In this document: piece by piece, positions 611 through 50,157 of the stretch
Position numbering within the stretch: the stretch's first letter is position 1
Layout: each line of letters starts with the position of its first letter
Assembly (NCBI GenBank): GCA_041666265.1
Contig: JBAYHH010000002.1
Coordinates: 9,096-73,095, forward strand
Reading direction: 5' to 3'
DNA: 64,000 nt
From: Candidatus Magasanikiibacteriota bacterium
GTDB lineage: Bacteria > Patescibacteriota > Patescibacteriia > Magasanikbacterales > GWA2-37-8
Made by a program: the position numbers and the translations under genes
Notes under the pieces: generated by a model
The model's input: the letters and a program-made list of their open reading frames with translations, nothing else
What the model was told of the DNA's origin: nothing
Database searches by the model: none

Positions 611-3600
611 CTAATTCATCTCCGACGGCAACACGATGATGTGCCCATCATACGGAATGTAGGAATAATTGCCGGCATCGGGGAAATTCAAATTCAAACT
701 ATTTTGGTATTTACTGCAATATTGGGTGCCGTCGGATTCGCGCGCGATCGTATTGGGATTGTCCGGGAAATTATAGCAACCTCGTTGGATACCACGCGCG
801 TTTTTGGCATCGCCGGCCGCGGTCGAAGCGTAGCACCCGCCCGTGCACCAACCCCAATTATCCACGAGCTGGATGCGGGGGCGATAGGCGCAGACGATGT
901 CGCCGGTCTTGAGGAACGACCCGATGTGGGTTTCGGAAATTTCGATCTCGTCCGGCTTGAGCGGATTGGCGCCGACTTTCATGAGAGCATACGGCCCCTG
1001 CGGAAATTTCTTGTGTTGCGGGATATTATCCCAGGTGGTCGATGGCATGGGGCACTCGTAGATGTAACCGACTTCGGTGTAGCCCGCTTCGCAACCGGTA
1101 TCGTTGGAACTGCCAAAACCGCCAAAATATGTCTCGACATCGGACGGAACATTGGATAGGTAAGCATGGCACTGCCCGGTAGATTCGCCGATAGCGCAGT
1201 CTTTTGCGCTGGCACATGGCACTTCCGGATAGTTGGTGCAAAAATATTTTGTTGCATTACTGGCAAAACACCGCGGTTTGCGATTGGCGAGCGGACCGAT
1301 TGACGGCAAAGTAGCCTGATCCACATCTTTGAAAGTATCGGCAAAATCCACTTCCATCGAAGTGATCGGCATTTGGTTCGGATGCGCCCAAGAATAATAC
1401 CGAATCTTCACTTCAGCGCCGGCTTTGACCAAGATATCTCCGCGGATTTGATTATTCACGGAAAATCTGTCCAATGCGGATATTTTACAATTTCGTCCTT
1501 GATCTTCGCTGCAATCCTGGTAGATACCTTGCTCCTCATCGCCATAATGTGAACGATCCAAATCTGGCGCGGCGACGATCGGCGGAAAACGGGTGAAACG
1601 AGTCGCTCCCGGGGCAGCAGTATCAAAATATGAATTTGATTTTAATGGGTAATCAACTACTGTTTCTGAGATTCCCGGCCTTTCAGTATAATTAACTATA
1701 TGGCTATTTAATTCATAAATACCGTAAATTCGTCTGAACAATCTTTCCACCCACAAACAATAGATACTGTCTATGCTGGGCGAGCTGTTTACATTGAAAC
1801 CTGAACATTCGGTTTTAACAAAATTACTTGCTTCGTAGTCACGATTAATAAGCAAGGGGATACCGCTATCGCCAAATTCACTGAAACTACTGTCATAAGA
1901 TACTCCAAGACTAACCTGGTCACGAATTGTGCTACTATTAATATCAAACCAACCCAACGGTATTGTGTCGCCAACATCACCGCGATAATAATTGTTAAAA
2001 GTAAAATCGTATGGCCTGCCCGTTGAACGCAAATACCCGATCTCAAAAACATCCTTCATCAAGCCATATGGTTTATCGGGGACAAATACTGACCATGGAA
2101 TAATAAATTTCTTTTGAATTACGGTATCAGAAATAGATCGGTAATCATAAGGTTGACGCGCGCGCCAGGTACTTAGTAAAAAATTATTTTTACCTGCTTT
2201 CACTTGTGCGATACTGCGACAATATCCGAGAGTGATATCTTCAAAATAACCGACTACAACATATCCCAATTTCATTTCATTATCCAACGATCCGCAATAA
2301 CTTTCTCGAGCAGGTATGAACGGCGGGATATTACCTTGATCACAATCCGGTGGCACATCAAACCCTTTACATAAATCGACATTTACATACGATGTTTGAT
2401 TTGGAAATCCTGTCTCTATTGAACAAGTATACGACATCCGACGAAATCTTGATCCTGATTTTGTGATTCCAGCTCCCAAACCAGCATCCTCTTTATGATA
2501 AAATCCTCCATTAGCTATTTGAAACACAAGCGCTTTGTTATTTGTGCTCTCAATATTAGTTTCGCTAACTTTAATTTGAACAGATGAATAAGGTAAAACA
2601 TCGTATATCTGAAAAATACCGTTGTCAGCGCTACTTTCAGCATTTATATTTTCTTCGCAAAATGACCCACTGCTTTCTACGCCAGTCGTCATACAAGTTT
2701 TGTATTTTGACATCTGAGGCTGCGAAAAAGTTTGATGAAGTAAAATATATTTAATAGCATTTAGTCCTTCATGATCATCAATTATTGTCGAGCGATCAGG
2801 TTGAGTGGTTTCCCCGATATTCTTTTGTAGACGACTAATAACTTGATCGTTAGTTAAAATCGCATCTGTCCCTACTGCATTATATGTATTATCAACTCGT
2901 ATGGCTCGCCACTGATATACTGGAATTGGAGGCGACGAAGAACCGTCCAAAGTTTCTGTTAGCTGCTCAAATTTGCTCTTGATTTCCACATTTTGTCTTG
3001 TATTGGAAAGTGTGGAAACGGTATGATCTTTAATACCGGAATACAAGTTGTGATCACTGCTAATTTTGTCAAAATCAAACACCACTACTCCCGGAGCAAT
3101 CGGATAATTGCCGTGCTCCCACATGCCATTAATATTTTCGAGTGTCCAGACTGGGTCTGAATTAAGATTGATTGCTCTCGTCAAATATACTTCAGCTTTT
3201 ATTAAGCGATATTTTGTTTTGTCCCAAGTAAAATTATTCAGTACTTGTAGCTTGCCACTACCGGGATCAACCGTGCCCGATCCTAACACTGTATTAAACT
3301 TACTTTCCGTGCGACGAAATATAACATTTGTGCTTTGAGGTTCAGAATTGTGAATACATGCTAATTGCGCATCTGGGACTATCGACGACGACTGTGGAAA
3401 TACCACTCCAATATTTTCATCCAAACCCTGTCCTATGCAATCATTTTTCCAAATATTTCCATCGACAATATCGACCAACGCAGTATAGAATGGATCACCA
3501 AGCTGTAGATTTGTAATGGTATTTATACTGCTTTCGATACATTTAAAACGAGAATTATCGCCATCAAAAGTATCGCCAATATTACTATTATTGTACCATG

Positions 3601-6600
3601 TTCCACTCTCGTTTGCCGTAGCTCGATTATTCACCCCGGCCGGGCTATTCACCGGCAACCAACTAAGACACGCGTAATCGGGCGCATTGCTCATGGCCGT
3701 GCCATTGAGCGGACGGCGCAAATCATGCTCCAGACAATAACCTTTCCAGCCTGGGATTTCTTGGGTGGATTGGCGCGGGAGGCAGGTGCCGGCGAGGGTG
3801 GGGTTCTCATACACTTCAACTGTTTGCTGTATACCCAAACCACTATTTGTACACCTAAATATCAATGAAGAGTCACCGATTTGCATTTTTTCAGAAACAC
3901 CATCTGATATAGATACTGATCCTTCACAATCATGATAATAGACTTTATCGGTGCGATCACCTGCTACAAGGCAAGAATACACGCAAGTCGGCGGTGAACT
4001 ATAATTCTTCAATGACACTGAATCACCATCTTTTGCATACAAATTTCTTGGAAATGCAAGGTACTTCAAGCCAGTAGTCGCTATTCCGAAACTTGACGAG
4101 CTAAATCGATAATATGTCTTACCAACATTTGACGCATCATTTGCTGCACAATTCCACGGCTCCCCGGTCACGCTCCAATACCCTTTGGGCGCGCCACTAC
4201 TATCGAGCTCATTGGTCGGCACCTGTGGCCAATAAACAATTTTTTGATTGGACGGACTACTCCCCTCGGCGCCATATCCGAGCTTGTAATATCCACAATC
4301 ACAATCCTTCCCGCCGTTGGACTTGTCCTCACACAGTTTGACATTATCGAAACCCGGCCAAGAGCCGTCGCTCGATGACAGAGAATTTTTAAATACCGAC
4401 AACGGGAACGGCGAATTTGCCTCGGGATAACCGCGACAAGTGAATGAGCTCGTCACCACCTCGACATCGGACGGCGAAAAATGCGGCTGGTCACTGCGAT
4501 CAGTAAACATCGAAAAACCGGTGTAGTCGGGCCCGCCCCAGGTGATATCGCGATCGAGATAATTGACCATGCCGGCGCGCACGCTGAGGGCGCGATCGAC
4601 GATCACCTTGTCTTTGTCGGCGCGGGTCTCGGTGACATCGTGGGCGCATTTATTATCTCCCGAGCTGGGGAGAAATTTATCGCACACGCCGAGCATGTAG
4701 CACTCTTGTTCTTGTTTATTGGTAATCGGATTAAACCGGTAATTCGCCAGCCGGCAATAATCCCACTCGGCGCAAGCGCGGTCGGGCAAAGCTTGGACGA
4801 TAATATTGGCATCGAGCGTGCCACTGGCGATTGGCGCCACTTTTTCGCCGTTCTGGCGATTGCTGTCGCGATAAGTCAATCCGGTGTTCCAATATTTATT
4901 GACGATATCGGTCTGGTCGAGAAGCACGCACCCGAGATTGAGACTGGCCATGCCATTGCAGGCGCCGAGGCTGGGTTTGATTTTTTCGTTCATTAGTAAA
5001 TAATAACTCTGGCAGGGTTTGCCCGGCTGACAATCGTTTTTGTCGGTAAATTCGGTACAACTGTTTTGGCTAAGCGGACACTCGCCCACGAAACCGTTGT
5101 ATTTATTGTTGGTGCCATACGACCACAGATCATATTTCTGATAATCCACCAGATAATCCGGATAGCAGGCCTGCTTGTCGGTGTCGATGCATTTGGTCCC
5201 CTCGGCGCCTGAACAATCTGAGTCGACTTTACAATACGCGGGCGACTGCTCGCTGCTTTGGTCGCACCTACCCACGCCTTTCCAAAACCAGCCATAAGTG
5301 ATGCCATAGGGCGCTTTTTCGACGCGTGTTTGCCAACTGCAGATTTTTTGACCGATGACTTTGGGATCTTTAAAATACAAATCACCTTTGGACGAGCCAT
5401 ATTTATTACAACCGACTGCCTCGTTGGTGCACAAGGTGCCCGCGGAATTATTTGATCCAAAATAACCGTCCGGCAAATTTTTGACGCGCGTAGCGGTGAA
5501 TTTCGGACCGGATGGGGTGTCTGTTTGTTTGCCCGCGTCCATACAACCGACATTAGCGGCGGTGCAGGCGGATTTCTTGTCGGCTACGAGATAGATCGGG
5601 GTGGTCGAAGGGGTGTCGGCCGGAATGTGGATGGTGGAGGAAGTAATTTGGGCGGTAGTCGCGACAATATCCGCATAACTCTGATGTGAGATATTGGTAT
5701 AACACCCATAAGCGCCGGTTTCCGCGATACACGAATATTCAGTTCCACCAACCGTCACCGTTAATTTTCCGGCATCTCTTGGCCCGGGCAACCACACATT
5801 ATAATACCCTTCGCCGGTATCGCTCTGGGTATTTTGGGTGTCGATCACCGCGGTACAACCGACCGCATCCTCGCGACACAAATAACTGAAATTAGTGAGA
5901 TAAAATGGATTGTTATTTGGCGTCTGATAACGCGCGCAACCAAGGGCCTCGCCCGGCAAATTGTCGAGAGGATTGCTATCGCAAAGAGTGTTTACTGATA
6001 GAGATTTTTTGACGAGATAAATATAGTCTACCACTTCCATCAGTTTAATATTGTCAATATAGATTCGACCGGAATTATTGAGAGTAAATTTTAATTGCGC
6101 GGTCGAAGTGGCGCCGGCGAGCTCCACCGGCCCGAGATGATAATGTCTCCAAGAATCGCCGATCTCCACATCGCCGAGCGCTGTATTGGCATTATTAGCC
6201 AAGCTAATAGAAACTTTTTGCGTGCCACCGTTCGCACCCGTGCCTTTGGCCCAAAATGTCAAATCATAGCCTTTTTCCGGATTGAGTTTGAGATTTTTGG
6301 CGACAACGGCACTGCCGGCCGAAGCATAAAATGACAGCGAGTGTTCGCCGGTCTTGGTTGATTCACTGACGAGAGAAATACTGCCATTATTCGTGACCCA
6401 GCCCGCGAGCGCCTCGGTCGTAGAAGTATTTTCAAATTGATCGTAAAAAATATTACGGACATTATTGCCGGCATTGCCTTTGTAAGCGCGACAGGTCTCA
6501 ACCGCGGCCGAGCACACTCGGCTCACGCCCGCGGTGTTATTTTCACCGGCCGGCAAGCCATTGTAGTAGCAAAATCCGTCTTTGTACTCGCCATTATTGA

Positions 6601-9600
6601 AACAGAGCTCGCAATGATCGGTATTCCAATAGCCTTTTTTGGCGCTACATTCGGTTGCGTCCAAGCCGTCGGTTTCGGATTTCGCCGGCAACGCCTGCAA
6701 TTCGGCGGTATTTAATCTATAAGGCGTGCAGGTCTGCGACACCGGCACGGTCTGCGAAAGAATGCGATAATAGGTATGACCCTTATCGTCGGTAAATTGT
6801 CGACAATCCGGACTAACCGCATCGTCCCAGTCAACACTTTTTGACCCCTGGGCATACACCGTGGCATTGCAAACCAGTTTGAAATAATCCAAATCAGCCT
6901 GCGTGCGATAAAAATACGCCGGGCCGTCTTTGATCGCGTCCGCGTCCGCTTCGCCGGATTTATCTATTTTCAAAACATAACTTTTTAATTGAACACCCTC
7001 GGCTTGCGTGCTCTCGTAAGTGAAAAATTTCCCGCTTGTCGCCTGATCGGGCGTGATGCATGGGCGCAGATAGGCGTAGTAGTCGATTTTTTCCATTTGC
7101 CCCACGAGAGCGCTCATATTGGTAAAGGCGCTACAGCCCTCCTCGACAGCCGAACAGGTATTGCCGGACTTGGGGATAATATAGGCTAAATTTTGGCCAC
7201 GACTATAATTGCTCGGCATCTCGCGATAAGACGCGTAGCCCACGCATTTGGCGTCGCATTGGTCGTTCCAATTGAGCACCAGGCCATTGGCAATTTCCGC
7301 CGGATTAAATTTGCCCGGGATCTGCTCCCCGCTCGCCGAGGCCGTATACATATTACAATTTTCCTCGGCTGCGATACAGGGCTGGGCGTATTTGGCGCAC
7401 TCGGTTTTTTTCCAGGGCAATAAATTGGTGTTGATGCCATTGAGATCAGAAAGTGAATCGGGCCAGACGGTCGCGACCGATTCGGGACGGGCATTGTAGC
7501 ACCCGAGATAGTCCGGCGCCCGACGCAAATAAAGCGAGGCATCGTCGAGCGTGGCGGTATAGGCCGTGCAACCCGAGGAATTGCCGGTACAATCGGTCGA
7601 AACTTTGCCGTTGAAATGAATCGCGGTATTTTGAAAATTATTTGATGGTGTCGGCGCGCTCGCGGTGAGCCAATTACCGGCATCGTCTTTGGTCAAACTA
7701 TAAATGGCGCAACCGGCATTGTCGGCGTTGCATTTACCGGTGTCGAGCGTGCGATAAAGATAGCCGACTTGTTTGCCCGAGACATCTTTGAAACTGACAC
7801 AAGACGCGTATTGCTCCTCGCAATTGTCGGCGTTAAATTTCCAGACATTTTTTTCTTTGAGACAATAACCATAGCTCTGACAGCTCTTGCCGTCGAGACT
7901 GTAGCCCACGCACCCCTGCAAATCGGCGCATTCTTTGGAGCGATTGCCCGAGCCCGGCACCTCGATATCCGACCCGAAAACAAGCGCGTTACAGCGGTGG
8001 GGCGGGACTTTGATCACCCAATTCGGATTGATGAGGTGGCAAAACGGTTTCTTGGCATCATGGACAACATGGCCCTGCGCGTCATAGGTGCAATCATAAA
8101 ACCCGTTGACCACATCTTCGAGGGTCCAGGGGGCGTCCGGGTTGCTGTTGCGGGCGGCAATTTCAAACCCGAGCGGTAAGATGCGCGCCTGACGCATTTT
8201 TTTGACATTGCTATAACAATAGTATTTTTGATAGCACTGCGGGCTGGTGTCCTCGCTATTGGTGGGCGGGATCAGTTTGAATTTTTTGTGCAAAAGATCG
8301 CGTTGCATCGCCTGGGTGATGGTGAGATAGCGACCGGTGCTGTTGGGCTCGTTGAGCGCGGAGGCGAGGGCGTAATCGATGATACAATTATCCGGCGTGG
8401 GATTGGCCGGGCAAGCACCAAAAAGATTGACTAAATTCCATTCATCGATCGAATTGATTGGGGATTTGAGCAGATCGATAAACATCGCTTCGGCGACTTG
8501 GCGGCCGGATGCCGTGGTAGCGTCGGGATCTTTAGGATCCGGACCACCATCGTCATCCTCTGGTTTTGGTTCCCAGCTACCGTCATCATTGCCGATTTCA
8601 TCCAATCCCAATTCCGGCATCTCCGGCCAATCAAATTCTTGTTTTTTACAGACATCGGACACGCAAAATCCAAAAAGCATGCCGTTGTACATGAAGTTAT
8701 TAAGAACCTGAGAAAAAAAAGTATTAAAGAATACTGCCGGCGTGTAAATTAGCAAATCCTTCATCCCCGAAGCCATCGACGAATTGATCACCTGCGTGTT
8801 GGTCTTGGCTTTTTCCGAAGCCGATTGATTTTGAAATTCTTTTTGCATCACTTGCGCCGGAGTCTTGACATTGCCCGAGATAATATCCGACATGCCGATA
8901 GCACCCTGGCCTTCATCGCGCTGTTTCTCGGCTCCATAGGTATTCTCTTTGACGGTGCGATCGACTTTGGCGCTGGCATCGAGATAAATGCCAAGGTCGC
9001 TTTGATCGGGTTTGATGGAAAAATTAAAATTCTGCGCCATGTTTTTCCAATAGCGACTGCTCCCTACTTGTTTCCAGTTGCTCAAAAATTGGGTAAAAGT
9101 ACATTTTGGTTTTTCCGGAAAATATTTACCTTTGAGGCCGAGCCGCAAAGCCAAATCCAAAAACAAGGTCGGCGGGGCGCACAAATCGACGCCCAATATT
9201 TCACCAAGACCCTGTAAAAAAAAACCGGCCGCGTCGTTGCCCACACTCGCCATATAATCGCCGAAATTGTTGTAATGTGAAAACGGCGTCTCGCCCTTGC
9301 CACCGGCGGCGAGATAAACCGCGCTATCATAGGCGACACGCGTGATAAACGACTGAATCGCCTGCGTGATGCCCATATAGGCGGCCAAAAGCATCACTTC
9401 ATACCATTTCATCTCCACTTCTTTGGCGAAATATTTGGCGCGCAGGGCTTGGAGGACTTCGTTGATTAAGGGTAAATTTTGAAAATTATCAATAGTGGGG
9501 CCTGGTGAGACAACTGTCGTTGGTGCCCCGGGCACCTGCGCTCTCACCGACGCCGGCACGGCCAAACTCCCAAAAACCGACACCGACAAAAATACCGTTA

Positions 9601-9646
9601 CCGCGAAACAATAGACGATTTTTTTGAGTGTGTTGGGCATAAACAA
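611..9646 (-). CDS. Giant (3011 aa) secreted cysteine-rich surface protein with at least one carbohydrate-binding-module-like / jelly-roll domain
   Basis: Single uninterrupted ORF with an N-terminal signal/TM (MFMPNTLKKIVYCFAVTVFLSVSVFGSLAVPASVRAQ). It has very many Cys, NG and DG motifs. A CBM4/9-like segment is present (...LKFTLNNSGRIYIDNIKLMEV). It starts 1 nt after the upstream co-oriented gene. Confidence 0.85.
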   Translation of the reverse strand: MFMPNTLKKIVYCFAVTVFLSVSVFGSLAVPASVRAQVPGAPTTVVSPGPTIDNFQNLPLINEVLQALRAKYFAKEVEMKWYEVMLLAAYMGITQAIQSFITRVAYDSAVYLAAGGKGETPFSHYNNFGDYMASVGNDAAGFFLQGLGEILGVDLCAPPTLFLDLALRLGLKGKYFPEKPKCTFTQFLSNWKQVGSSRYWKNMAQNFNFSIKPDQSDLGIYLDASAKVDRTVKENTYGAEKQRDEGQGAIGMSDIISGNVKTPAQVMQKEFQNQSASEKAKTNTQVINSSMASGMKDLLIYTPAVFFNTFFSQVLNNFMYNGMLFGFCVSDVCKKQEFDWPEMPELGLDEIGNDDGSWEPKPEDDDGGPDPKDPDATTASGRQVAEAMFIDLLKSPINSIDEWNLVNLFGACPANPTPDNCIIDYALASALNEPNSTGRYLTITQAMQRDLLHKKFKLIPPTNSEDTSPQCYQKYYCYSNVKKMRQARILPLGFEIAARNSNPDAPWTLEDVVNGFYDCTYDAQGHVVHDAKKPFCHLINPNWVIKVPPHRCNALVFGSDIEVPGSGNRSKECADLQGCVGYSLDGKSCQSYGYCLKEKNVWKFNADNCEEQYASCVSFKDVSGKQVGYLYRTLDTGKCNADNAGCAIYSLTKDDAGNWLTASAPTPSNNFQNTAIHFNGKVSTDCTGNSSGCTAYTATLDDASLYLRRAPDYLGCYNARPESVATVWPDSLSDLNGINTNLLPWKKTECAKYAQPCIAAEENCNMYTASASGEQIPGKFNPAEIANGLVLNWNDQCDAKCVGYASYREMPSNYSRGQNLAYIIPKSGNTCSAVEEGCSAFTNMSALVGQMEKIDYYAYLRPCITPDQATSGKFFTYESTQAEGVQLKSYVLKIDKSGEADADAIKDGPAYFYRTQADLDYFKLVCNATVYAQGSKSVDWDDAVSPDCRQFTDDKGHTYYRILSQTVPVSQTCTPYRLNTAELQALPAKSETDGLDATECSAKKGYWNTDHCELCFNNGEYKDGFCYYNGLPAGENNTAGVSRVCSAAVETCRAYKGNAGNNVRNIFYDQFENTSTTEALAGWVTNNGSISLVSESTKTGEHSLSFYASAGSAVVAKNLKLNPEKGYDLTFWAKGTGANGGTQKVSISLANNANTALGDVEIGDSWRHYHLGPVELAGATSTAQLKFTLNNSGRIYIDNIKLMEVVDYIYLVKKSLSVNTLCDSNPLDNLPGEALGCARYQTPNNNPFYLTNFSYLCREDAVGCTAVIDTQNTQSDTGEGYYNVWLPGPRDAGKLTVTVGGTEYSCIAETGAYGCYTNISHQSYADIVATTAQITSSTIHIPADTPSTTPIYLVADKKSACTAANVGCMDAGKQTDTPSGPKFTATRVKNLPDGYFGSNNSAGTLCTNEAVGCNKYGSSKGDLYFKDPKVIGQKICSWQTRVEKAPYGITYGWFWKGVGRCDQSSEQSPAYCKVDSDCSGAEGTKCIDTDKQACYPDYLVDYQKYDLWSYGTNNKYNGFVGECPLSQNSCTEFTDKNDCQPGKPCQSYYLLMNEKIKPSLGACNGMASLNLGCVLLDQTDIVNKYWNTGLTYRDSNRQNGEKVAPIASGTLDANIIVQALPDRACAEWDYCRLANYRFNPITNKQEQECYMLGVCDKFLPSSGDNKCAHDVTETRADKDKVIVDRALSVRAGMVNYLDRDITWGGPDYTGFSMFTDRSDQPHFSPSDVEVVTSSFTCRGYPEANSPFPLSVFKNSLSSSDGSWPGFDNVKLCEDKSNGGKDCDCGYYKLGYGAEGSSPSNQKIVYWPQVPTNELDSSGAPKGYWSVTGEPWNCAANDASNVGKTYYRFSSSSFGIATTGLKYLAFPRNLYAKDGDSVSLKNYSSPPTCVYSCLVAGDRTDKVYYHDCEGSVSISDGVSEKMQIGDSSLIFRCTNSGLGIQQTVEVYENPTLAGTCLPRQSTQEIPGWKGYCLEHDLRRPLNGTAMSNAPDYACLSWLPVNSPAGVNNRATANESGTWYNNSNIGDTFDGDNSRFKCIESSINTITNLQLGDPFYTALVDIVDGNIWKNDCIGQGLDENIGVVFPQSSSIVPDAQLACIHNSEPQSTNVIFRRTESKFNTVLGSGTVDPGSGKLQVLNNFTWDKTKYRLIKAEVYLTRAINLNSDPVWTLENINGMWEHGNYPIAPGVVVFDFDKISSDHNLYSGIKDHTVSTLSNTRQNVEIKSKFEQLTETLDGSSSPPIPVYQWRAIRVDNTYNAVGTDAILTNDQVISRLQKNIGETTQPDRSTIIDDHEGLNAIKYILLHQTFSQPQMSKYKTCMTTGVESSGSFCEENINAESSADNGIFQIYDVLPYSSVQIKVSETNIESTNNKALVFQIANGGFYHKEDAGLGAGITKSGSRFRRMSYTCSIETGFPNQTSYVNVDLCKGFDVPPDCDQGNIPPFIPARESYCGSLDNEMKLGYVVVGYFEDITLGYCRSIAQVKAGKNNFLLSTWRARQPYDYRSISDTVIQKKFIIPWSVFVPDKPYGLMKDVFEIGYLRSTGRPYDFTFNNYYRGDVGDTIPLGWFDINSSTIRDQVSLGVSYDSSFSEFGDSGIPLLINRDYEASNFVKTECSGFNVNSSPSIDSIYCLWVERLFRRIYGIYELNSHIVNYTERPGISETVVDYPLKSNSYFDTAAPGATRFTRFPPIVAAPDLDRSHYGDEEQGIYQDCSEDQGRNCKISALDRFSVNNQIRGDILVKAGAEVKIRYYSWAHPNQMPITSMEVDFADTFKDVDQATLPSIGPLANRKPRCFASNATKYFCTNYPEVPCASAKDCAIGESTGQCHAYLSNVPSDVETYFGGFGSSNDTGCEAGYTEVGYIYECPMPSTTWDNIPQHKKFPQGPYALMKVGANPLKPDEIEISETHIGSFLKTGDIVCAYRPRIQLVDNWGWCTGGCYASTAAGDAKNARGIQRGCYNFPDNPNTIARESDGTQYCSKYQNSLNLNFPDAGNYSYIPYDGHIIVLPSEMN

Positions 9647-9647
9647 A

Positions 9648-10607
9648 TTATTGAGCGGCGGTGGACTGGGCCAGCGCGTTTAATATTTCTTGCACTGTAG
9701 TCATGATTTGCGCGTCGGTCATCTGGTCCACGCTCGCTTTATCCATCCCCTGTTTGATCAATAAAACGCGCGCGGTAGTAGGATCGGATAATTGCTTGAG
9801 TAGGTCAGCCGGCAACGATACATTTCCGACCGTGGTATTGGGCGCGGTAGCGGGCGGTGTCGTCACTGTCGGCGCGATCGCTGCCGACACAGAGCTCGAT
9901 GTCATTTTGCCGCTAAGCGCGAGCGCGGTGAGCGAACCCAAAATCGATGGACTGGACGAACTATAGGCGGCAAAATCCCGATTGCTCTCTTCGATTGCTT
10001 TGGCCACCATCGCTTTGATATCCGCGTCACTTAGACTATTCAAATCATCGGCGCTCGTCCCCTGTCTTTGCAATAAATTACGCACCGCGGTCGGATCGTC
10101 TTTGAGTTGATTGAGGAAATTCATCTGAGCATTGCGCGCGTCGGCAGTGAAATCATGATCAGACGCGAATCCACCGGATAATTGCGCGTAAGAAAATGTC
10201 CCGCTCGCGCTGGCTGTGGCATAAGCGCTCGCTACCTGCGTCGAGCAATACTTGCCGTGCGGACAAAGCGGATTTTCATTTTGGACAATCTCTTGTTTGT
10301 CGGCGATGCCGTCGCTGTCGGTGTCGGCGAGATACGGACTCGTGCCATAGACATACAATTCCTCGAAATCACTAAGGCCGTCATTGTCGGTGTCGCGATA
10401 CGCGAGCGTCTCCACACCATTGACTTCATTGCTCACCTCGGCGGGCACGCCGCTCCCAAGCTGAAACGGGCTATACATGGTATTGCGCAGTTGGAGCACC
10501 CCGAGGCCCAGCGCGGATACGGCAAAAACCAGCAATAAAACAAAACCCACTTTCTGTTCATGCGAAAGTTTTCGGATAGATTGTTGGGGCGATGCCTGAT
10601 CGTCCAT
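9648..10607 (-). CDS. Membrane-anchored protein with thrombospondin-type-3-like Ca-binding repeats (DTDNDGLSDFEE, DTDSDGIADKQE) and an internally repeated C-terminal region
   Basis: The ORF track extends to 10685, but that extension overlaps a terminator hairpin of rsmA. A start at MDDQASPQQ (10607) is followed by a TM helix. The gene is probably translationally coupled to the giant gene. Confidence 0.65.
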   Translation of the reverse strand: MDDQASPQQSIRKLSHEQKVGFVLLLVFAVSALGLGVLQLRNTMYSPFQLGSGVPAEVSNEVNGVETLAYRDTDNDGLSDFEELYVYGTSPYLADTDSDGIADKQEIVQNENPLCPHGKYCSTQVASAYATASASGTFSYAQLSGGFASDHDFTADARNAQMNFLNQLKDDPTAVRNLLQRQGTSADDLNSLSDADIKAMVAKAIEESNRDFAAYSSSSPSILGSLTALALSGKMTSSSVSAAIAPTVTTPPATAPNTTVGNVSLPADLLKQLSDPTTARVLLIKQGMDKASVDQMTDAQIMTTVQEILNALAQSTAAQ

Positions 10608-10651
10608 AATCCAAATAGTTACGAAATTATTATACCATAATTTTTTACAAA

Positions 10652-10680
10652 AAACCACAGCCCTGGGGCTGTGGATAACC
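10652..10680 (-). terminator. Rho-independent terminator downstream of rsmA (stem CCACAGCC/GGCTGTGG plus T-run); contains the DnaA-box 9-mer TTATCCACA
   Basis: The minus strand reads GGTTATCCACAGCCCCAGGGCTGTGGTTTTTTGTAAAAAA. Confidence 0.55.
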
Positions 10681-10703
10681 TTCATAATTATTACTACCGA
10701 TAT

Positions 10704-11849
10704 TTAAAGCTTCTCTGCTAATATTTTCCACTGCTCGACCGACAACTCCTGCGCTCGGACGGTGTTTTTTAGCCCCATTTCGTCAAAAACTTTGGCTAAT
10801 TCCGATTTTTTGGCGAGTGATGACAAGTTTTTTATCAAAAATTTACGACGATTGGCAAAACCGAGGCGAGCGATATCGAAAAAGCGTTTGGTGAACGCGA
10901 CAGATTCTTCGACTCCGCCCCGCCAGTCGGCGGGGCTGCGCTCAGAATGACAGGTGGGATCAATTGCCGGCTCACCGCCACTTGTCATCCCGAACGAATG
11001 TGAGGGATCTTCGTTGGTTTTACTTGTTGTTGGAGATTCTTCGCTTTGCCTGCCTGTCGGTAAGCAAGGCTCAGAATGACAGACATGGCCGATCACCGAA
11101 TCACTATTTTTTATATTTGATTTTTTATATTTGATTTTTATAATCGCGCTATCCACTTTTGGCTCGGGCCAAAAATTATCTCGGGTCACGACTGCCACTA
11201 TCTCTGGCTCGCCGTAATATTGCACAGCCAAAGATAATAGCGACATATCGCCCGGTCGCGCGCAAATTCTTTCGGCCACTTCTTTTTGCACCATCACGGT
11301 CATCGTCTCGGGCGGATTATTTGATTCTAAAAATTTACGAAGGACTTGAGATGTTATCTGGTATGGTAAATTCGCGATAACCTTATATTTTGTTTGGGGC
11401 GAGAATATTTCTTGTGAGCGGGTTATGCGACCGCAGTCGCATCCTTTCGCGCTCGCGCGCGAAAAAAGCGAACAAGATGTATTCTCGCCCCAATCAAAAT
11501 TCGCATGCAAAACATTCCCCCAGATAATTTGTAAATTTTTTATCGGAGCCAATCCCTCGCTTTGATCAGACTGACAAAATCGAGCCCAATATTTTTGTAA
11601 TTTTTTTTCAATCTCAAACGCGACCACTTGACCGGCGGTTTCGGCGAGCGCAAATGTCAGTACGCCAAACCCGGGTCCAACCTCGACCACGGTATCATTT
11701 TTTGTCACCCCCGCGGCCGCGATCATTTGATCGATCACTTCCGGGTTGATCAAATAATTCTGCCCATATTGACGGCTTGGGCGCAATCCGGCCTGCTGGC
11801 ATAAGTGTAATAAATAGTCGGGATTGAATAGCTTTTCGCGCATACTCAT
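10704..11849 (-). CDS. rsmA: 16S rRNA (adenine1518/1519-N6)-dimethyltransferase RsmA/KsgA, carrying three in-frame repeat-derived insertions
   Basis: The N-terminus has the KsgA signature ...LRPSRQYGQNYLINPEVIDQMIAAAGVTKNDTVVEVGPGFGVLTFALAE. At 381 aa it is about 100 aa longer than usual. The extra segments map exactly onto repeat DNA. Confidence 0.9.
   Translation of the reverse strand: MSMREKLFNPDYLLHLCQQAGLRPSRQYGQNYLINPEVIDQMIAAAGVTKNDTVVEVGPGFGVLTFALAETAGQVVAFEIEKKLQKYWARFCQSDQSEGLAPIKNLQIIWGNVLHANFDWGENTSCSLFSRASAKGCDCGRITRSQEIFSPQTKYKVIANLPYQITSQVLRKFLESNNPPETMTVMVQKEVAERICARPGDMSLLSLAVQYYGEPEIVAVVTRDNFWPEPKVDSAIIKIKYKKSNIKNSDSVIGHVCHSEPCLPTGRQSEESPTTSKTNEDPSHSFGMTSGGEPAIDPTCHSERSPADWRGGVEESVAFTKRFFDIARLGFANRRKFLIKNLSSLAKKSELAKVFDEMGLKNTVRAQELSVEQWKILAEKL
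10903..11082. repeat. Family-A palindromic repeat copy inserted in-frame in rsmA (encodes ...[56 protein letters not shown]...)
   Basis: The arms GATTCTTCGACTCCGCCCC...GCTCAGAATGACA and TGTCATCCCGAACGAATGTGAGGGATCT...GGCTCAGAATGACA are present. Confidence 0.85.
11104..11145. repeat. Family-C AT-rich short tandem repeat (AAAAATCAAATATA x2) inserted in-frame in rsmA (encodes IKIKYKKSNIK)
   Basis: A direct tandem is visible. Nearly the same unit sits in uvrC in the same frame. Confidence 0.7.
11393..11492. repeat. Family-B element (core TGAGCGGGTTATGCGACCGCAGTCGCATCCTTTCGCGCTCGCGCGCGAAAAAAGCGAA within a perfect 22-bp inverted repeat TTGGGGCGAGAATATTTCTTGT/ACAAGATGTATTCTCGCCCCAA) inserted in-frame in rsmA
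   Basis: It encodes WGENTSCSLFSRASAKGCDCGRITRSQEIFSPQ between conserved KsgA segments. The core is shared with the copies at 16356 and 29552. Confidence 0.8.
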
Positions 11850-11982
11850 ATAATAAATATCGGAGACAAAATTACAAATATAAAATTACAAATTCCAAAT
11901 AAACCTCGCCTACCGGCAGGCAGGTAATAAATAACAAATTCAAAAAGCGACTTGAGATTTGTGATTTTAAGAATGACAGTTG

Positions 11983-13128
11983 TCATTGAGCTAAACCGAC
12001 ATCGCTATAAACATTGCGCGCGTTCCACAGTATCCACCCATCGGCACGGGCGTCATCGCTCGCCCGAATTTGCGCGCTGATCTTGTCGCTATCATAGATC
12101 GCCCCCATATTAAACGCCTGCACCCAGGCGCGCAGACGCGCTTTTTGACCACTCGCCTGCTTCACTCCCGCGCTCATGGCGCTATACACCACTTCATAGG
12201 GGTGGTCGGCCGGATTTTTAAAATTTAAATAATTCGCGGGGTAGTGCGACGGATATACCATCGGGCACACATAATCAAAAAATTTCACCGCGTCTCCGAG
12301 GCGCTGGCCGATGCGCATATCGTCTTCGCCGTATTTTTCCGTGGTCAGGCCAAATAAATCCGCCGAAAGATACACGGGTTGATCTTTCATCTGCTCGGAA
12401 AAATATTTAAAAAAGTCCGCGATCACTTCGTAGCGTTGGCGCCCGCCGAGCTCATACAAAATATCGCTCATGTTGCCGTCAGTGGGAAAACGAATATAGT
12501 CGAGATTGATCTCGTCAAAACCAAGCTTAGCCGCCTCCTTCGCGATCGATACGATATAATCCCAAATTTCCGGACGAGCGGCGTTGACCCAAGCCAAATT
12601 ATTTTTATCGCGCCATGACTTGGTCGGATCGGATTTTGATTTGATCGCCCACTCCGGTTTTTTTTCCGCCAAAATCGGATCTTGAAAAGAGCTAACGCGA
12701 GCGATGGTGTAAATATTATGGCTTTTCAATTTCGCGATCAAGGCGCGCATATTTTTTACGCGCGTGTCTTTAAGTTTATTTTTTATCACAAACGGCAATT
12801 GCGAATCATACAAAACATAACCGGAATAATCTTTGATGTCGATAACGATGGAATTGAGTTCGGTGCGCTCGATGAGGCCGATGATCTCGTCGATTTTTTT
12901 GAGGTTGCCGGCGGAATAAGCGGTGAGATAGAGTCCTTTCACTTTTATCGGCGCGTGCTTGGCGCGTGCTTGGTTTTGACCAAGCGAATTTTCGGTAAAC
13001 GCCGTCATGGTACTTAGATCGTCGATTTGAGCGACTGAAATCTCGGATAGCGAGACCACAAAAACACACGCAAAAATCGCCGTGGACACAAATACTATCC
13101 AGATGGTTTTTTGGTCGATGCCGGACAT
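11983..13128 (-). CDS. Putative glycoside-hydrolase-like TIM-barrel protein (DUF4015/GHL family) with N-terminal TM anchor
   Basis: The core reads ...GLYLTAYSAGNLKKIDEIIGLIERTELNSIVIDIKDYSGYVLYDSQLPF...IARVSSFQDPILAEKKPEWAIK.... The likely start is MSGIDQKTIWIVFVSTAIFACVFVV (13128); the track ORF extends to 13221. Confidence 0.65.
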   Translation of the reverse strand: MSGIDQKTIWIVFVSTAIFACVFVVSLSEISVAQIDDLSTMTAFTENSLGQNQARAKHAPIKVKGLYLTAYSAGNLKKIDEIIGLIERTELNSIVIDIKDYSGYVLYDSQLPFVIKNKLKDTRVKNMRALIAKLKSHNIYTIARVSSFQDPILAEKKPEWAIKSKSDPTKSWRDKNNLAWVNAARPEIWDYIVSIAKEAAKLGFDEINLDYIRFPTDGNMSDILYELGGRQRYEVIADFFKYFSEQMKDQPVYLSADLFGLTTEKYGEDDMRIGQRLGDAVKFFDYVCPMVYPSHYPANYLNFKNPADHPYEVVYSAMSAGVKQASGQKARLRAWVQAFNMGAIYDSDKISAQIRASDDARADGWILWNARNVYSDVGLAQ

Positions 13129-13304
13129 AGCTTGTGTATTATACTGTGGATAAACCATCTTGACAATCACCACAAAATGTTGTAGTATTAAAGTAATGGT
13201 AGGTTTAGCTGTAAAGAACATTTACGCTCCGAACTCCAAAGCTCCCGCAAGGGAGTTTTTGGTTTTTATATTGTGTGATATAATTATTGCGCTGTCACCG
13301 AGAC

Positions 13305-13415: not shown

Positions 13416-16310
13416 TTAAAGTACGCGTTTAAGGTAGTGGCCGGTCGAGCTCACGGATTTTTTGGACACCTCCTCGGGCGTGCCGATGGCGATGATTTCT
13501 CCGCCCTTATCCCCGCCTTCGGGACCGAGATCGATGATCCAATCACAAGATTTGATCACATCGAGATTATGTTCAATCACCAGCACTGTATTACCTCGAT
13601 CCACCAGTCGCTGTAAAACCACAAGTAATTTTTTGACATCTTCGTAATGCAATCCGGTCGTGGGTTCGTCGAGCAGATACAAAGTTTTGGTCGTGCCATA
13701 GCGAGCAAGCTCGCGCGAAAGTTTGATCCGCTGAGCCTCGCCGCCCGATAGGGTCGGCGCGCTTTGACCCAAAGTCAAATAATCCAAACCGACCTCATTT
13801 AATATTTTTAATTTGTCGTAAATCATCGGGATGTCGCGAAAAAAATCTTCGGCGTCGGCAATCGTCATCTCCAAAATATCGGCGATTGATTTACCATTGT
13901 AATGCACAGCCAGAGTTTCGTTGGTAAATCGTTTGCCTTTGCACACATCGCAAACAATTTGCACGCTTGGTAAAAAATGCATCTCGATTTCGAGCGTGCC
14001 TTTGCCTTCGCAATTTTCGCATCTGCCCCCGGGCACATTGAAACTAAATCGACTATGACTAAACCCGCGCATGCGCGCTTCGGCGGTCGAGGCGAACAAA
14101 TCGCGGATATGATCAAAAGCCTTGGTATAAGTGGCGGGATTACTACGACTGGTGCGTCCGATCGCGCCCTGATCGATCGTGATGACGCCATCGAGATATT
14201 CCGTGCCGGTGACGCTGTGACATTTAACTTCTTTATCGGTGCGAAAAAGTTTGTTGATTACCGCTTGGCGCAAAACATCGTTCATGAGGGTGGACTTGCC
14301 CGAACCGGACACGCCGGTGAGACAAACAAAACGGCGCAAAGGAATCTCCACGGAAATATTTTTTAAATTATGTTCAAACGCTTTTTTGATTTTTAATTTG
14401 GGGGTCGAACTGCCGACATCGCGCCGTCGAAGCGGGAGCTCGATTTTCTTTTCTCCCCGGAGATATTGACCGGTGAGCGATTTTTTCGCGTCGCCGATAA
14501 TTGCTGTCCCAAAATTGTCATTCTGAGCGGAGTGAAACGAAGTCGAAAGCCTGCCCTGAGCGACAGTCGAATGGGAATCTATTCGCTTTTTGACGCCCTT
14601 GGATCCTTCGACTCGGCCTTGGGCCTCGTTCAGGATGACATTAACCGGACCGCTATAGACGATCTCACCGCCGTGTTTGCCGGCGCCGGGACCAATATCC
14701 ACCATCCAATCACTCTCGCGAATCGTATCTTCGTCGTGCTCCACCACGATGATAGTATTGCCGGCCTCGCACAGCGCGCGCAGAGTTTTGACGAGCTGAT
14801 CATTGTCGCGCTGATGAAGCCCGATCGTGGGCTCGTCGAGCACATACAGAGCGCCCACGAGTTTGGTGCCGACTTGCGACGCGAGCCGAATGCGTTGAGC
14901 TTCGCCGCCAGACAAAGTGCCGGCGCGCCGATTGAGGGTGAGATAATGCAGTCCCACATCATACATAAATTGCAGACGATTTTGGATTTCTTTTAGTACC
15001 ATGCCGGATATTTCCAATTCGCGCGGATCCATGTCCAATTCCGCCTGCGCGAAAAATTCGCGCGCCTCGGCGATCGACAAATTGGCCACTTCCCAAATAT
15101 TTTTTTGATGAATTTTTACCGCGAGCGCGTTGGTATTGAGGCGTTTGCCGGCGCACTGCGGACAGATTTCCGTGCTAAATAATTCTTTGGTGCCGAGACC
15201 GGTACAGGCCTCGCAATATCCATACGGACTATTAAATGAAAACAGGCGCGGTTCGATTTCAGGAAAAGAAAAACCGTCGTTCGGACACGAATACTGGGTG
15301 GAAAAAATCTGCTCATGGCCATCGGGATAAATCACGGCGCACAAACCATTGGACAAGTCGACCGCCGTTTCCACCGCTTCGGCGAGACGCTGGCTCACTT
15401 TATCTGTCATCCCGAACGAATGTGAGGGATCTCCACTCGTTCGTTTTTTGTGTCTTGGAGATTCTTCGCTTCGCCTGCCTGCCGGCAGGCAAGGCTCAGA
15501 ATGACAATCGTCATACGAAATTTTATCCACCACCACCTCAATCGTATGCTTATTATTTTTTTCCAAATCTATGCGCTCGCGTAAACTTTTTATTTTGCCA
15601 TCGACGCGCACTTCCAGAAATCCGCTATTGTAAAAATCGTAAAGCATCTGATAATATTCGCCTTTCCGACCACGCACCACGGGCGATAATATCGTCAACT
15701 CACCAACATTGTCATTCTGAGCGGAGCGAAGCGGAGTCGAAGAATCTATTCGCTTTCCATTGTTTTTAGATCCTTCGATTCGGCCCGCCGATTGGCGGGC
15801 CTCGCTCAGGATGACAGCGCTCATTTCATCGACAGTCATTTTTTCTATTCGGTGTCCGCACTGGGGACAATGAGGCACGCCCACGCGCGCGTATAATACG
15901 CGCAAATAATCATAAATCTCGGTGATGGTAGCGACGGTCGAGCGCGGATTGCCGGAGTGCGCTTTTTGATCAATGGAAATCGCCGGCGACAAACCCTCGA
16001 TCTCATCGACATCGGGTTTTTGCATACCACCCAAAAATTGACGGGCGTAAGCGGAAAGAGATTCAATATATCGACGCTGGCCCTCGGCAAAAATAGTATC
16101 AAAAGCCAAACTCGATTTTCCCGAGCCTGACAACCCCGTGAATACCACCATTTTGTTGCGTGGTATTTCCAGGTTAATATTTTTTAAATTGTGCTCGCGC
16201 GCGCCTTTGATGATTATCTTGTCTTTCATATTTGTTTTGAAACGCCAAATCGGCCCGAAAATCGAACCGCCTAAAACACTACCATGAAAAGAGCGTGGGT
16301 ATAATACCAA
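13416..16310 (-). CDS. uvrA: Excinuclease ABC subunit A (UvrA) with three in-frame family-A repeat insertions
   Basis: Two ABC ATPase modules are present ([23 protein letters not shown]; [15 protein letters not shown]), plus Zn modules and LSGGEAQRI signatures. The likely true start is MKDKIIIKG (about 16229). Three segments ([33 protein letters not shown]; [35 protein letters not shown]; [37 protein letters not shown]) coincide with repeat DNA. Confidence 0.95.
14516..14640. repeat. Family-A palindromic repeat, in-frame in uvrA
   Basis: TGTCATTCTGAGCGGAGTGAAACGAAGTCGAAAG...GGATCCTTCGACTCGGCCTTGGGCCTCGTTCAGGATGACA. Confidence 0.85.
15405..15506. repeat. Family-A palindromic repeat, in-frame in uvrA
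   Basis: TGTCATCCCGAACGAATGTGAGGGATCTCC...GAGATTCTTCGCTTCGCCTGCCTGCCGGCAGGCAAGGCTCAGAATGACA. Confidence 0.85.
15710..15816. repeat. Family-A palindromic repeat (full unit with outer and inner inverted repeats), in-frame in uvrA
   Basis: TGTCATTCTGAGCGGAGCGAAGCGGAGTCGAAGAATC...GATCCTTCGATTCGGCCCGCCGATTGGCGGGCCTCGCTCAGGATGACA. Confidence 0.9.
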
Positions 16311-16355: not shown

Positions 16356-16475
16356 CGACAAAAATAATTTACGACAATTTGTCTCTTGAGCGGGTTATGA
16401 CGCCGAAGCGTCATCCCCGAGACCTCGCGGTCGAGGAAAGCGAAAGAGATAAATTGTCGTAAATTATTTTTGTCG
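16356..16475. repeat. Family-B element: core TTGAGCGGGTTATGACGCCGAAGCGTCATCC...GAAAGCGAAAGAG within a perfect 30-bp inverted repeat (CGACAAAAATAATTTACGACAATTTGTCTC / GAGATAAATTGTCGTAAATTATTTTTGTCG); the right arm overlaps the last codons and stop of uvrB
   Basis: The palindrome is visible directly. The uvrB C-terminal codons VLKRQK* are encoded by the right arm. Confidence 0.8.
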
Positions 16476-28600: not shown

Positions 28601-28811
28601 GGCCCTGCATCATTTTCATACGCGCCACGATATCGGTGGCAATGTAGCCCTTGGGATGGCCGACATGGAGTCCGGCGCCCGACGGATACGGAAACATATC
28701 CAAAACATAAAACTTCGGTCGGTCGGATGAATCGCTGGTTTTGAAAGTTTTGTTTTTCTCCCAATATTTTTGCCACTTTTTTTCGATTTTGGCCGGATGG
28801 TATTGATTCAT
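25686..28811 (-). CDS. leuS: Leucine--tRNA ligase (LeuS), 1041 aa, with an inserted YdeN/RBBP9-type serine hydrolase (alpha/beta hydrolase) domain in the ZN-2 region and a short family-A repeat insertion
   Basis: HVGHP (HIGH), the ZN-1 CxxC...CxxC, the editing-domain motif TTRPDTLFG and KMSKR are present. Between VKCEACANKK and CPKCSGPAKRETNTM lie about 230 extra aa: ILIHGFTSNSSRGFKPWLKTELEKDGHRVWNPDLPNTTNP...VLVGHSLGGPVTYRILE. Confidence 0.95.
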   Translation of the reverse strand: MNQYHPAKIEKKWQKYWEKNKTFKTSDSSDRPKFYVLDMFPYPSGAGLHVGHPKGYIATDIVARMKMMQGHNVLHPMGWDAFGLPAENYALKNKMHPAESTEKNVQVFKKQLGLLGFTYDWDREVNTTDPEYYRWTQWMFIEMYKRGLVFESNEPINWCPSCKTGLANEDLDDGKCERCGSIVEQKPMRQWVIKITDYAERLLNDIDKLTEWPEPIKEMQRNWIGKSEGALVKFAVIPTEAQGRAEESLSIEVFTTRPDTLFGCTYCVVAPEHELLRNQKFNIKNQKEVNEYIANAKNKTVMERTELAKEKTGIEIQGIKAVNPANGEQVPIFVADYVLGNYGTGAIMAVPAHDERDWEFAKKYDLPIRCVVIPDAYSVESASKPFSDNFQKDQDVEMTKILLGEKCNVSGGISTNSDFLNGLKTPEAKQKMITWLEEKNIGKKKTQYKLRDWVFSRQRYWGEPIPLVKCEACANKKFNYILIHGFTSNSSRGFKPWLKTELEKDGHRVWNPDLPNTTNPNVNEQAKYVLENSPFSIDEDTVLVGHSLGGPVTYRILESINKKIARTVLVDPVVRPRFNDQDRPEVVASCDWQFDWKKIKINGGKIVVLGDIHRPIIKKEHLVELEKNLGADLWWVIPQNYHFSSRGGAVESEPAVLRASIDSGWSVVDDEELPLELPKVKHYEPSGTGESPLATIEKWVNTKCPKCSGPAKRETNTMPQWAGSSWYYLAYAMPRVKGKYIWDKKVIEYWIGSGLAPRSPSEAQGEGGVDFYVGGAEHATRHLIYARFWHKFLFDIGMVAHDEPFKRLQNLGVILAEDGRKMSKRWNNVINPNDIVARFGADAMRVYEMFMGPFDQPCAWNMQGVVGAKRFLEKVWDLFPRLDKNFTADASVGIMHKTIKKVTEDISEMKFNTAISQLMIWVNELRAQEKTSFDELKNLTLLLAPFAPHLCEELWEMLDQKSSVVNADWPKYNPAKIQDNEITLAIQVNGKLRDTIVVPFDISDTDAKDRALASEKVQKWLEGRAPKKVIYVKGKLVSIVA
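28060..28106. repeat. Family-A partial repeat, in-frame in leuS (encodes IPTEAQGRAEESLS)
   Basis: AGATTCCTCCGCTCGGCCTTGGGCCTCGGTCGGAATGACA. Confidence 0.7.
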
Positions 28812-29540: not shown

Positions 29541-29551
29541 ATTAGATAGCA

Positions 29552-29715
29552 TTGAGACATATTTGATTCTGAGCGGGTTATATTAAGATATATTCTCATT
29601 CGTTCGATAATCATTAAAATAATTAATGATTATACTCACTCATTTCGAATATGCGCCCGCAGGCGCATCCTTTCGCGCTCGCGCGCGAAAAAAGCGAAAA
29701 ACAAATATGTCTCAA
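29552..29715. repeat. Family-B element (core TGAGCGGGTTAT...GCGCATCCTTTCGCGCTCGCGCGCGAAAAAAGCGAA with an internal AT-rich palindrome, bounded by the inverted repeat TTGAGACATATTTG/CAAATATGTCTCAA), intergenic
   Basis: Compared directly with the copies at 11393 and 16356. Confidence 0.75.
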
Positions 29716-29717
29716 TA

Positions 29718-32573: not shown

Positions 32574-32625
32574 TGAAATTTGTGATTTGAAATTTACTTG
32601 GAATTTGTAATTTAAGATTTGTGAT

Positions 32626-45954: not shown

Positions 45955-46082
45955 ATGAAAATATTTAATTTCGAATTTTGAATTTCGAACTATATTTAAT
46001 TGTTAATTTTGCGATTTTGGAATTTATTATTTGAGATTTGTTATTTATTTGGAATTTGTAATTTTATATTTGAGATTTATCG

Positions 46083-50021: not shown

Positions 50022-50157
50022 GTTATAATACCGTATATTGAAAATATCAAATTTTAAATTACAAATAAATCCCAAATTTAAAAACTCAAAGCGATTGGAA
50101 TTTGTTATTTGAAATTTATTTGTGACTTGAAATTTTGAATTTGTAATTTCGCCTATT

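Follow-up and report, generated by a model that had tools for sequence, protein, structure and literature searches.

The rsmA gene and its product

The gene considered here lies within a 64,000-nt stretch of a Candidatus Magasanikiibacteriota contig (JBAYHH010000002.1), which is referred to throughout as the window. It is a single open reading frame on the minus strand (10704–11849), rsmA/ksgA, and a terminator-like hairpin with a T-run, detected by a consensus scan, lies about 30 nt past its stop codon (10655–10674, minus strand). An earlier note on this DNA had described the frame as one conserved methyltransferase ORF of 381 residues that carries three different repeat families in frame. 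Re-inspection of the ORF list bore out the first part of this description: the 381 codons are intact, with no stop and no frameshift. The gene order, DUF4015, rsmA, a TSP3-repeat protein and a giant protein, recurs in two other contigs from Magasanikbacteria.

Profile searches with the product recovered the NCBIfam equivalog model TIGR00755 (ksgA) with 209.4 bits against a cutoff of 171, the match falling into three collinear pieces, and the Pfam RrnaAD model with an e-value of 1e-49. The SAM-binding GxGxG motif (VEVGPGFG), the acidic motif II (FEIEKK) and the catalytic NLPY motif (ANLPYQIT) are all present in columns that are invariant in 120 sequences. All 46 such invariant columns are retained, including GxGxG, E79 of motif II, N160, P162 and Y163 of NLPY, and R335 and K336 of the RRK motif in the C-terminal domain. 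An AlphaFold model computed with the homologue alignment (pTM 0.77; 237 residues with pLDDT of 90 or more) predicts with confidence a KsgA fold, comprising a Rossmann N-terminal domain and a helical C-terminal domain. Foldseek searches with this model place KsgA structures first (TM 0.81-0.86, normalized to the target), the best match being 6IFT (E = 1e-22; target-normalized TM 0.81). The codons flanking the inserts were also compared with those of a syntenic orthologue (locus L001); identities at codon positions 1, 2 and 3 are 79, 80 and 45% in one flank and 68, 83 and 38% in the other, a pattern that points to purifying selection on the protein. From these sequence features we infer that rsmA is a working gene for a KsgA-type 16S rRNA dimethyltransferase, and that its protein is made and active.

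Placement of the inserts in the protein

As had been claimed, the protein is longer than usual, for its 120 closest homologues mostly have 270-300 residues. It shares the two-domain fold and motifs I-IV with other members of the KsgA/RsmA family (TIGR00755; PDB: 6IFS/6IFT, 7V2L, 7O5H and 1QYR), but is about 100 residues longer, and all of this excess lies in three connecting segments. The earlier note had proposed placing the insertions by alignment with KsgA structures, expecting them in predicted loops, and the alignment with Bacillus subtilis KsgA (PDB: 6IFS, 7V2L) finds them there, and in frame. Residues 13-114 align with KsgA 17-110, residues 147-240 with 120-215 and residues 318-378 with 225-290, so that the alignment is interrupted exactly at residues 115-146 and 241-317, where there are about 30 and 75 extra residues respectively. 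These two junctions explain why the TIGR00755 match falls into three separate stretches.

The three segments, which we term sites 0, 1 and 2, are respectively the stretch between motifs II and III (residues ~89-104, from the motif II strand to the strand at 106-110), the loop leading from motif III (GNVL) to motif IV (NLPY; residues ~115-154) and the linker joining the N- and C-terminal domains (residues ~242-317). In the model, pLDDT falls below 50 only at residues 123-141 and 248-310, that is, in the two large inserts. Translation of the inserts would add about 100 residues, which are probably disordered. On the 30S subunit KsgA is reported to contact rRNA through its beta6/7 linker and through loops 1, 12 and 14 (bioRxiv 10.1101/2021.09.15.460497), and these do not appear, in a mapping at the sequence level, to coincide with the insert sites.

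Repeat-derived segments within rsmA

All three repeat types named by the earlier note are real dispersed families. Its count of three insertions holds for the sites in the protein but falls short for the DNA, in which we distinguish at least five repeat-derived pieces that make up about 28% of the length of rsmA: one composite and two solo modules of the first family (family A), one element of the second (family B), and an AT-rich tandem tract. Inteins and group I or group II introns were considered as candidates for these segments and were ruled out by size (33-77 residues, about 100 nt) and by their missing motifs.

Site 2 begins with the AT-rich tandem, given earlier as 11104–11145 and placed by TRF at 11106–11139, which consists of 2.4 perfect copies of a 14-nt unit and encodes KIKYKKSNIKN; the peptide IKIKYKKSNIK quoted for it earlier was likewise found. 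Because 14 nt do not make up whole codons, each unit is translated in a frame other than that of the unit before it (first KIKYK, next KSNIK). Further into the gene the single palindrome formerly assigned to 10903–11082 resolves into two family-A pieces and a 29-nt spacer. The first piece is a composite palindrome of two inverted modules that encodes 33 residues (10983–11082, from the module listing), and the second a solo module whose tip is a GC-rich hairpin and which encodes CHSERSPADWRGGVEES (10900–10953, minus strand; recovered by the module regular expression and by folding). The spacer (10954–10982), which we read from the sequence as encoding SGGEPAIDPT, falls within the low-confidence loop at residues 248-310.

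Site 1 (residues ~116-154) is occupied by the family-B element, formerly placed at 11393–11492 and now delimited at 11387–11500 by its inverted repeat, its fold and a covariance-model match of 99 bits. Its arms (11387–11415 and 11472–11500) are 29 nt each and 90% complementary, and the predicted fold has an energy of -62 kcal/mol (z = -9.6 versus shuffled sequences). The conserved 57-nt core is read on the plus strand (11416–11472) and is accordingly antisense to rsmA. The peptide previously reported for this element, WGENTSCSLFSRASAKGCDCGRITRSQEIFSPQ, is present at residues 120-152, and the residues of lowest confidence at this site (123-141) lie within the insert.

Site 0 holds what is probably a degraded solo family-A module, which encodes CQSDQSEG at residues ~93-100 (11550–11577, minus strand). 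The 14 nt at 11564–11577 share 79% identity with the family-A end motif, the module regular expression has a hit at 11575, and the segment is about 75% identical to intact modules over 26 nt as counted by hand. This remnant was absent from the earlier list.

Family A is a dispersed hairpin module

The building block of family A is a hairpin of 25-55 nt, which runs from TGTCATYCTGAGCG through a variable tip to CGAAGRATCT. Tandem G.A mismatches occur in the stem, and the tip is either a 3-nt loop or a GC-rich hairpin. Modules are used alone or as inverted pairs, the resulting composites starting with TGTCAT and ending with ATGACA; no direct repeats that might represent target-site duplications were found beside the five composite elements checked. 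With up to two mismatches allowed, the end motif GCTCAGAATGACAG was matched 13 times in the window, as against 0.28 times in shuffled sequences, and none of 100 shuffles reached 13. Sixteen modules were recovered in the window by regular expression, 13 of them within ORFs and 10 in rsmA and uvrA taken together. The solo module of rsmA at 10900–10953 has an 81% identical intergenic copy at 553–600, and the composite has an 87.5% identical sibling in uvrA (15405–15506) that is translated in the same reading frame; the fold of the rsmA composite is weak (z = -2.5, versus -5.9 for the uvrA copy).

Translated copies of the end motif read CHSE or VILSE in the sense and AQND or (L/F)xMT in the antisense orientation. 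The two frames that contain TGA were never seen among in-frame copies in the window and in the homologues, which is the trace expected from selection acting after insertion.

Scanning viral contigs (IMG/VR) with the exact pattern TGTCATTCTGAGCG-N(3-30)-CGAAGAATCT recovered 94 loci with 131 modules, of which 76 are the minimal 27-mer and about 10% lie inside long ORFs, whereas by a rough estimate fewer than one match is expected by chance. Family A is thus a widespread environmental hairpin repeat, common to Magasanikbacteria and many other organisms or their viruses. Literature searches with its DNA string returned unrelated papers only, and no name for the family was found in the searchable literature.

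The AT-rich tandem likewise belongs to a dispersed set: its motif TTTTATATTTGATTT is matched 11 times in the window, where 0.93 matches would be expected. Related tracts, some of them intergenic, occur at 21777 and 61149 and also at 31540, where the tract is read in frame within uvrC.

Family B is a structured, mainly intergenic element

Two further copies of family B lie in the window. One separates the uvrA ORF from the uvrB ORF (16358–16474; covariance model, 110 bits) and has a 28-bp outer stem of unrelated sequence; the other is intergenic (29550–29718; 36 bits), and a nested insert of 68 nt interrupts its core. A common core unites the three window copies with the copy in L001, and differently placed copies have unrelated outer stems. 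Searching 166 kb with the covariance model added one decayed copy and the interrupted window copy, and nothing else.

Exact-pattern scans identified 11 loci in GTDB genomes and 85 more in metagenomes, and none in viral contigs (IMG/VR). The GTDB loci are mostly from metagenome-assembled genomes of Patescibacteria/Magasanikbacteria, although 4 of the 11 come from two such assemblies labelled Gammaproteobacteria. Within these scans we regard family B as confined to Patescibacteria. The resulting set comprises 93 distinct elements of 70-124 nt, about 90 of them from outside the window. The core is a three-way junction of ~57 nt, in which 22 of the 32 predicted pairs show compensatory changes across copies, and its two tip hairpins covary, with tandem G.A pairs frequent in one of them. 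About 30 unpaired or junction nucleotides (TGAGCGGGTTATG, CATCC and AAAGCGAA) are near-invariant, an invariance that is partly built in, since most copies were gathered by exact-pattern scans that fix part of the core. The outer stem, formed by the P1 arms, measures 6-33 bp; its innermost 8-10 bp are semi-conserved, whereas the outer 10-20 bp differ in each copy and are nevertheless palindromic. Such copy-specific palindromic arms might have arisen by insertion of the core into the tips of existing hairpins or, alternatively, by outward growth of the palindrome through template switching; both are possible.

The large majority of copies (83/93) are intergenic, their usual place being 8-12 nt (median) past a stop codon in either orientation. 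Copies near the 3' ends of genes are sense to the flanking genes in 28 cases and antisense in 42, and this lack of a decisive strand bias weakens a strand-specific RNA reading of the family. A U-tract-like tail is found on at least one side of 35 of 80 intergenic copies (~44%), as against 9-12% per control window further out, so that some copies probably double as terminators. Ten of the 93 copies lie in long ORFs, eight of them convincingly: three in rsmA, three in an ELP3-like radical SAM gene and one each in ftsK and a FolC-like gene, the hosts other than rsmA having been named by reading translations.

When the whole window was searched against Rfam 15 at the gathering cutoff, a single tRNA was recovered and neither repeat family was matched; relaxing the search to E = 10 yielded only long-hairpin miRNA and snoRNA noise for the family-A regions and the family-B regions alike. 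The hammerhead core motif was not seen by eye in either orientation of family B. We tentatively raise the possibility, which we rate as real but below even, that family B is an undescribed, Patescibacteria-restricted class of structured element.

The family-B copy in rsmA and its age

The family-B copies in the rsmA genes of the window and of L001 agree in their copy-specific outer arms. Identity between the two copies is 82%, almost even across the codon positions (84, 81 and 81%), and all three stems show compensatory changes between them. The neighboring third codon positions of rsmA are saturated in this pair (38-45% identity). Conservation that is even across codon positions is unlike that of pure junk, and the copy may be constrained or recently refreshed. 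Its sharing with L001 could accordingly reflect one of three situations, namely an insertion that happened once, long ago, and has since been constrained at the nucleotide level, arms that evolve in concert, or a source that the two acquired in common more recently. A neighbor-joining tree built from the core RsmA columns, to ask whether the insert shared with L001 was inherited vertically, took a star-like form without P0003 as the nearest neighbor; P0002, P0006 and P0005, the homologues ranked closest by the core columns, are without family B.

The usefulness of the locus for dating the insertions, which the earlier note had put forward together with a comparison of alleles from related assemblies, is not supported as stated and is weak at best. 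Among 5.8 billion clustered proteins there was no homologue with between 63% and 100% identity, and this gap means that there are no presence/absence alleles by which the insertions could be dated; an exact look-up of the self match (P0001) yielded no recorded contig. The sole dating signals are the family-B element common to the distant syntenic orthologue L001 and the 12.5% divergence of the composite family-A element from its uvrA copy.

Recurrent insertion at the same three places

Among the 120 closest homologues, nearly all from Magasanikbacteria/Patescibacteria where the source is named, 34 carry insertions of 12 or more residues at these sites, 10 of them at site 0, 21 at site 1 and 20 at site 2. 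At site 0, all ten are A-type inserts at the same place as the rsmA remnant. The inserts come from many families (e.g. CHSERSEES..., VIARS..TKQS..., SLRG...LAMT and a tandem KILDI). At site 1 of one homologue (P0095, locus L047), family B is inserted the other way round and is read as ...CERVMRPQAHPRALAGEESE..., which is an independent strike on the loop also hit in the window gene. Other genes of the window are loaded too: uvrA contains three composite family-A palindromes, and in-frame repeat copies also occur in comEC, leuS, prmC, uvrC and a second uvrA-like ORF, with uvrC carrying the AT-rich motif in frame as well.

It had been suggested that rsmA is a hotspot or a permissive target. Since unrelated inserts recur at the same sites and other genes also carry copies, the gene is better described as tolerant than as specifically targeted. 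The permissive reading is upheld by the 34 homologues with inserts at the same three places, and the reading as a special hotspot is at most weakly supported, rsmA being heavily loaded but not uniquely targeted.

Origin of the inserts and alternative explanations

The explanation that we favor, and regard as highly probable, is that short non-coding hairpin repeats have inserted at least five times into a working rsmA gene and survived where the reading frame and the fold could tolerate them. Elements of this kind would insert throughout the genome, and an intragenic copy would survive only if it kept the frame, introduced no in-frame stop and landed in a tolerable surface loop or linker. In RsmA such tolerant places are the segment joining motif II to motif III, the loop between motifs III and IV and the interdomain linker. 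That the elements are mobile at all we infer from their copy number and dispersal. As a guess by analogy, the mover might be a trans-acting transposase that recognizes hairpins, in the way that RAYT moves REP elements. Two rival accounts deny that a functional protein bearing the inserts is made. Given that about 28% of the gene is repeat-derived and that KsgA is dispensable in Escherichia coli, rsmA could be a decaying pseudogene whose frame has stayed open by accident; yet five or more insertions that are all in frame and stop-free, the retention of every invariant catalytic and RNA-binding residue, the purifying selection seen in the codon-position pattern and the spread of comparable inserts among homologues make this very improbable. 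Still harder to credit is a protein of normal length, obtained by removal of the hairpins from the mRNA in the manner of introns or by ribosomal bypassing. The elements are indeed strongly structured, and intervening sequences reportedly occur in rRNA genes of CPR bacteria, but removal at the RNA level would not constrain frames or stops, whereas every intragenic copy seen is open and the TGA-containing frames are absent; nor was there a match to an intron or ribozyme family in Rfam.

Two further explanations accept the translated inserts and differ from loop tolerance in what they add to it. The elements might favor particular DNA targets, such as existing hairpins or their own earlier copies, as could be argued from the two family-A pieces and the AT-rich tract lying side by side at site 2, the concentration of 10 of the 16 modules of 64 kb in rsmA and uvrA, the nested insert within the family-B copy at 29550–29718, and the arms of family B, which look as if the core had tipped another hairpin each time. 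Selection on the protein nevertheless accounts better for many unrelated families, dissimilar in DNA sequence, at the same three loops, and insert-free homologues have no palindrome at site 1; on balance we consider such targeting unlikely, though the least so of the alternatives. Exaptation, in which at least family B was kept in rsmA for a useful structure or peptide (a pause, an attenuator, a terminator, a binding site or a protein surface), seems less likely again. It would suit the even conservation between the window and L001 copies next to far less conserved third positions, the compensatory changes in all three stems and in most pairs across the family, and the U-tract-like tails of intergenic copies. 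However, the core is near-invariant wherever it was examined, the search pattern itself fixing part of it, and so is uninformative on rsmA in particular, while repair or template switching can by itself keep the arms of a DNA palindrome complementary, without any selection for structure. The element is moreover missing from the three closest core-column homologues, its opposite orientation at the same loop in another lineage speaks against one specific RNA function, and its peptide is predicted to be disordered. Accumulation of tolerated insertions thus remains our preferred reading.

Relationship to known repeats and implications

The closest known parallel is provided by the Rickettsia palindromic elements (RPEs), families of ~100-150-bp palindromes that lie in frame in unrelated housekeeping genes (Ogata et al. 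2000, via PMC10969869) and are translated with the host protein in a manner reported there to be compatible with its fold and function (PMC10969869). The likeness is one of behavior and the host is a different one, so that the present families are to be regarded as analogues of RPEs and not as members. Like RPEs, they are dispersed palindromic repeats that occur in frame (here in rsmA, uvrA, uvrC, comEC, leuS and prmC), and the inserts in RsmA lie in low-pLDDT loops compatible with the fold. They differ in that the host is a CPR bacterium, that the family-A unit is a shorter hairpin (25-55 nt) used solo or in inverted pairs, that several families are stacked in a single 1.1-kb gene, and that family B is mainly intergenic.

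With REP/BIME elements the present families share the form of short imperfect palindromes of conserved sequence, found solo, in inverted pairs or in clusters and, in the composite family-A elements checked, lacking target-site duplications, and family B shares a preferred place just 3' of stop codons. REP elements are, however, extragenic by definition, whereas 13 of the 16 family-A modules of the window are inside ORFs; family B is for the most part extragenic (83/93). The likeness to MITEs (Correia/NEMIS, ERIC, BOX, RUP and SPRITE) extends to a length of ~100 nt, the non-coding nature, the bounding inverted repeats and the many copies, as well as possible terminator action of the kind known from terminator-like SPRITE. 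Bacterial MITEs also form occasional in-frame fusions with host ORFs (PMC10969869). In contrast to MITEs, the composite family-A elements have no target-site duplication, and family B, being conserved at its center and variable in its outer arms, shows the reverse of the classic pattern. A literature search on MITEs or palindromic insertions in Patescibacteria found nothing relevant.

These observations suggest that the colonization of housekeeping genes by selfish in-frame palindromes, best known from Rickettsia, is also common in CPR/Patescibacteria. The genomes of these bacteria are small and about 90% coding, with little intergenic room. Translated repeats would explain a class of odd-length CPR proteins, along with low-complexity inserts that confuse annotation and alignment, and the natural inserts offer a map of the insertion-tolerant loops of KsgA. 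Two repeat families are gained, one environmentally widespread (A), the other lineage-restricted and structured (B). The latter is a lead that may merit a study of its own: should the insertion mechanism itself make the copy-specific arms, or should the core prove to be a ligand- or protein-binding or catalytic module that caps terminator hairpins, family B would represent a new type of element, mobile or regulatory, and one that is also able to live inside coding sequence.

Distribution of family-A modules

The short hairpin modules of family A, found singly or as inverted pairs that form a composite palindrome, are also carried by other genes of the window. The uvrA gene (13416-16310, minus strand) contains three of the composite palindromes, all in frame (14516-14640, 15405-15506 and 15710-15816), while a second uvrA-like ORF (61777-63999) has a solo module that is read as CHPERSEGS. 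A short family-A insert, VIPTEAQGRAEESL, lies in the 1041-residue leucyl-tRNA synthetase ORF (25686-28811, minus strand). An alpha/beta-hydrolase domain (Pfam Abhydrolase_6) is also embedded in this ORF, at residues 481-593.

The 27-nt minimal module, TGTCATTCTGAGCGNNNCGAAGAATCT, recurs exactly in viral contigs from IMG/VR, where an exact pattern allowing 3-30 nt between the ends recovers family A at 94 loci (L101-L180 and above; 76 of their 131 modules are the minimal form). These loci come from many unrelated metagenomes, and in some of them the copies are regularly spaced, e.g. three copies 138 nt apart in L155.

Structure and hosts of family B

Comparison of 93 copies of family B, a structured repeat with a conserved core (loci L001-L100 and the window), revealed that the outer 10-20 bp of the stem are palindromic in every copy and alike in no two. 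No standard transposition mechanism is known to account for such copy-specific inverted flanks. The core of the copy at 29550-29718 is split by a 68-nt insert with its own AT-rich hairpin, placed after GGGTTAT; this is a case of one element nested inside another.

Family-B elements are also present in two MAGs labelled as uncultured Gammaproteobacteria in GTDB records (L007, L011 and L014). Since the sequence flanking the element is near-identical in L014 and in L015, which is labelled Magasanikiibacteriota, the comparison suggests an error in the label or the binning.

The rsmA neighborhood and AT-rich tracts

Gene order around rsmA is retained among distant Magasanikbacteria (window 611-13221; the syntenic orthologue locus L001; L003/L004), with a DUF4015 glycosyl-hydrolase-like gene followed by rsmA, a TSP3-repeat protein and a giant protein of 2000-3000 residues. 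The AT-rich tandem within rsmA contains a putative sigma-70-like promoter, a consensus match (11117-11144, plus strand; TTGATT-16 nt-TATAAT, 10/12) directed antisense to the gene. In many of the window's intergenic regions (32564-32627, 45983-46078, 50093-50156, 56635-56712 and 11850-11900), AT-rich sequence repeats with a period of 7-8 nt (ATTTGTA/ATTTGAG/AAATTAC); one such tract immediately precedes the rsmA start codon.

The window additionally encodes a tRNA-Ile with a TAT anticodon (59373-59446, plus strand); in most bacteria, AUA is read by a tRNA with a lysidine-modified CAT anticodon instead.
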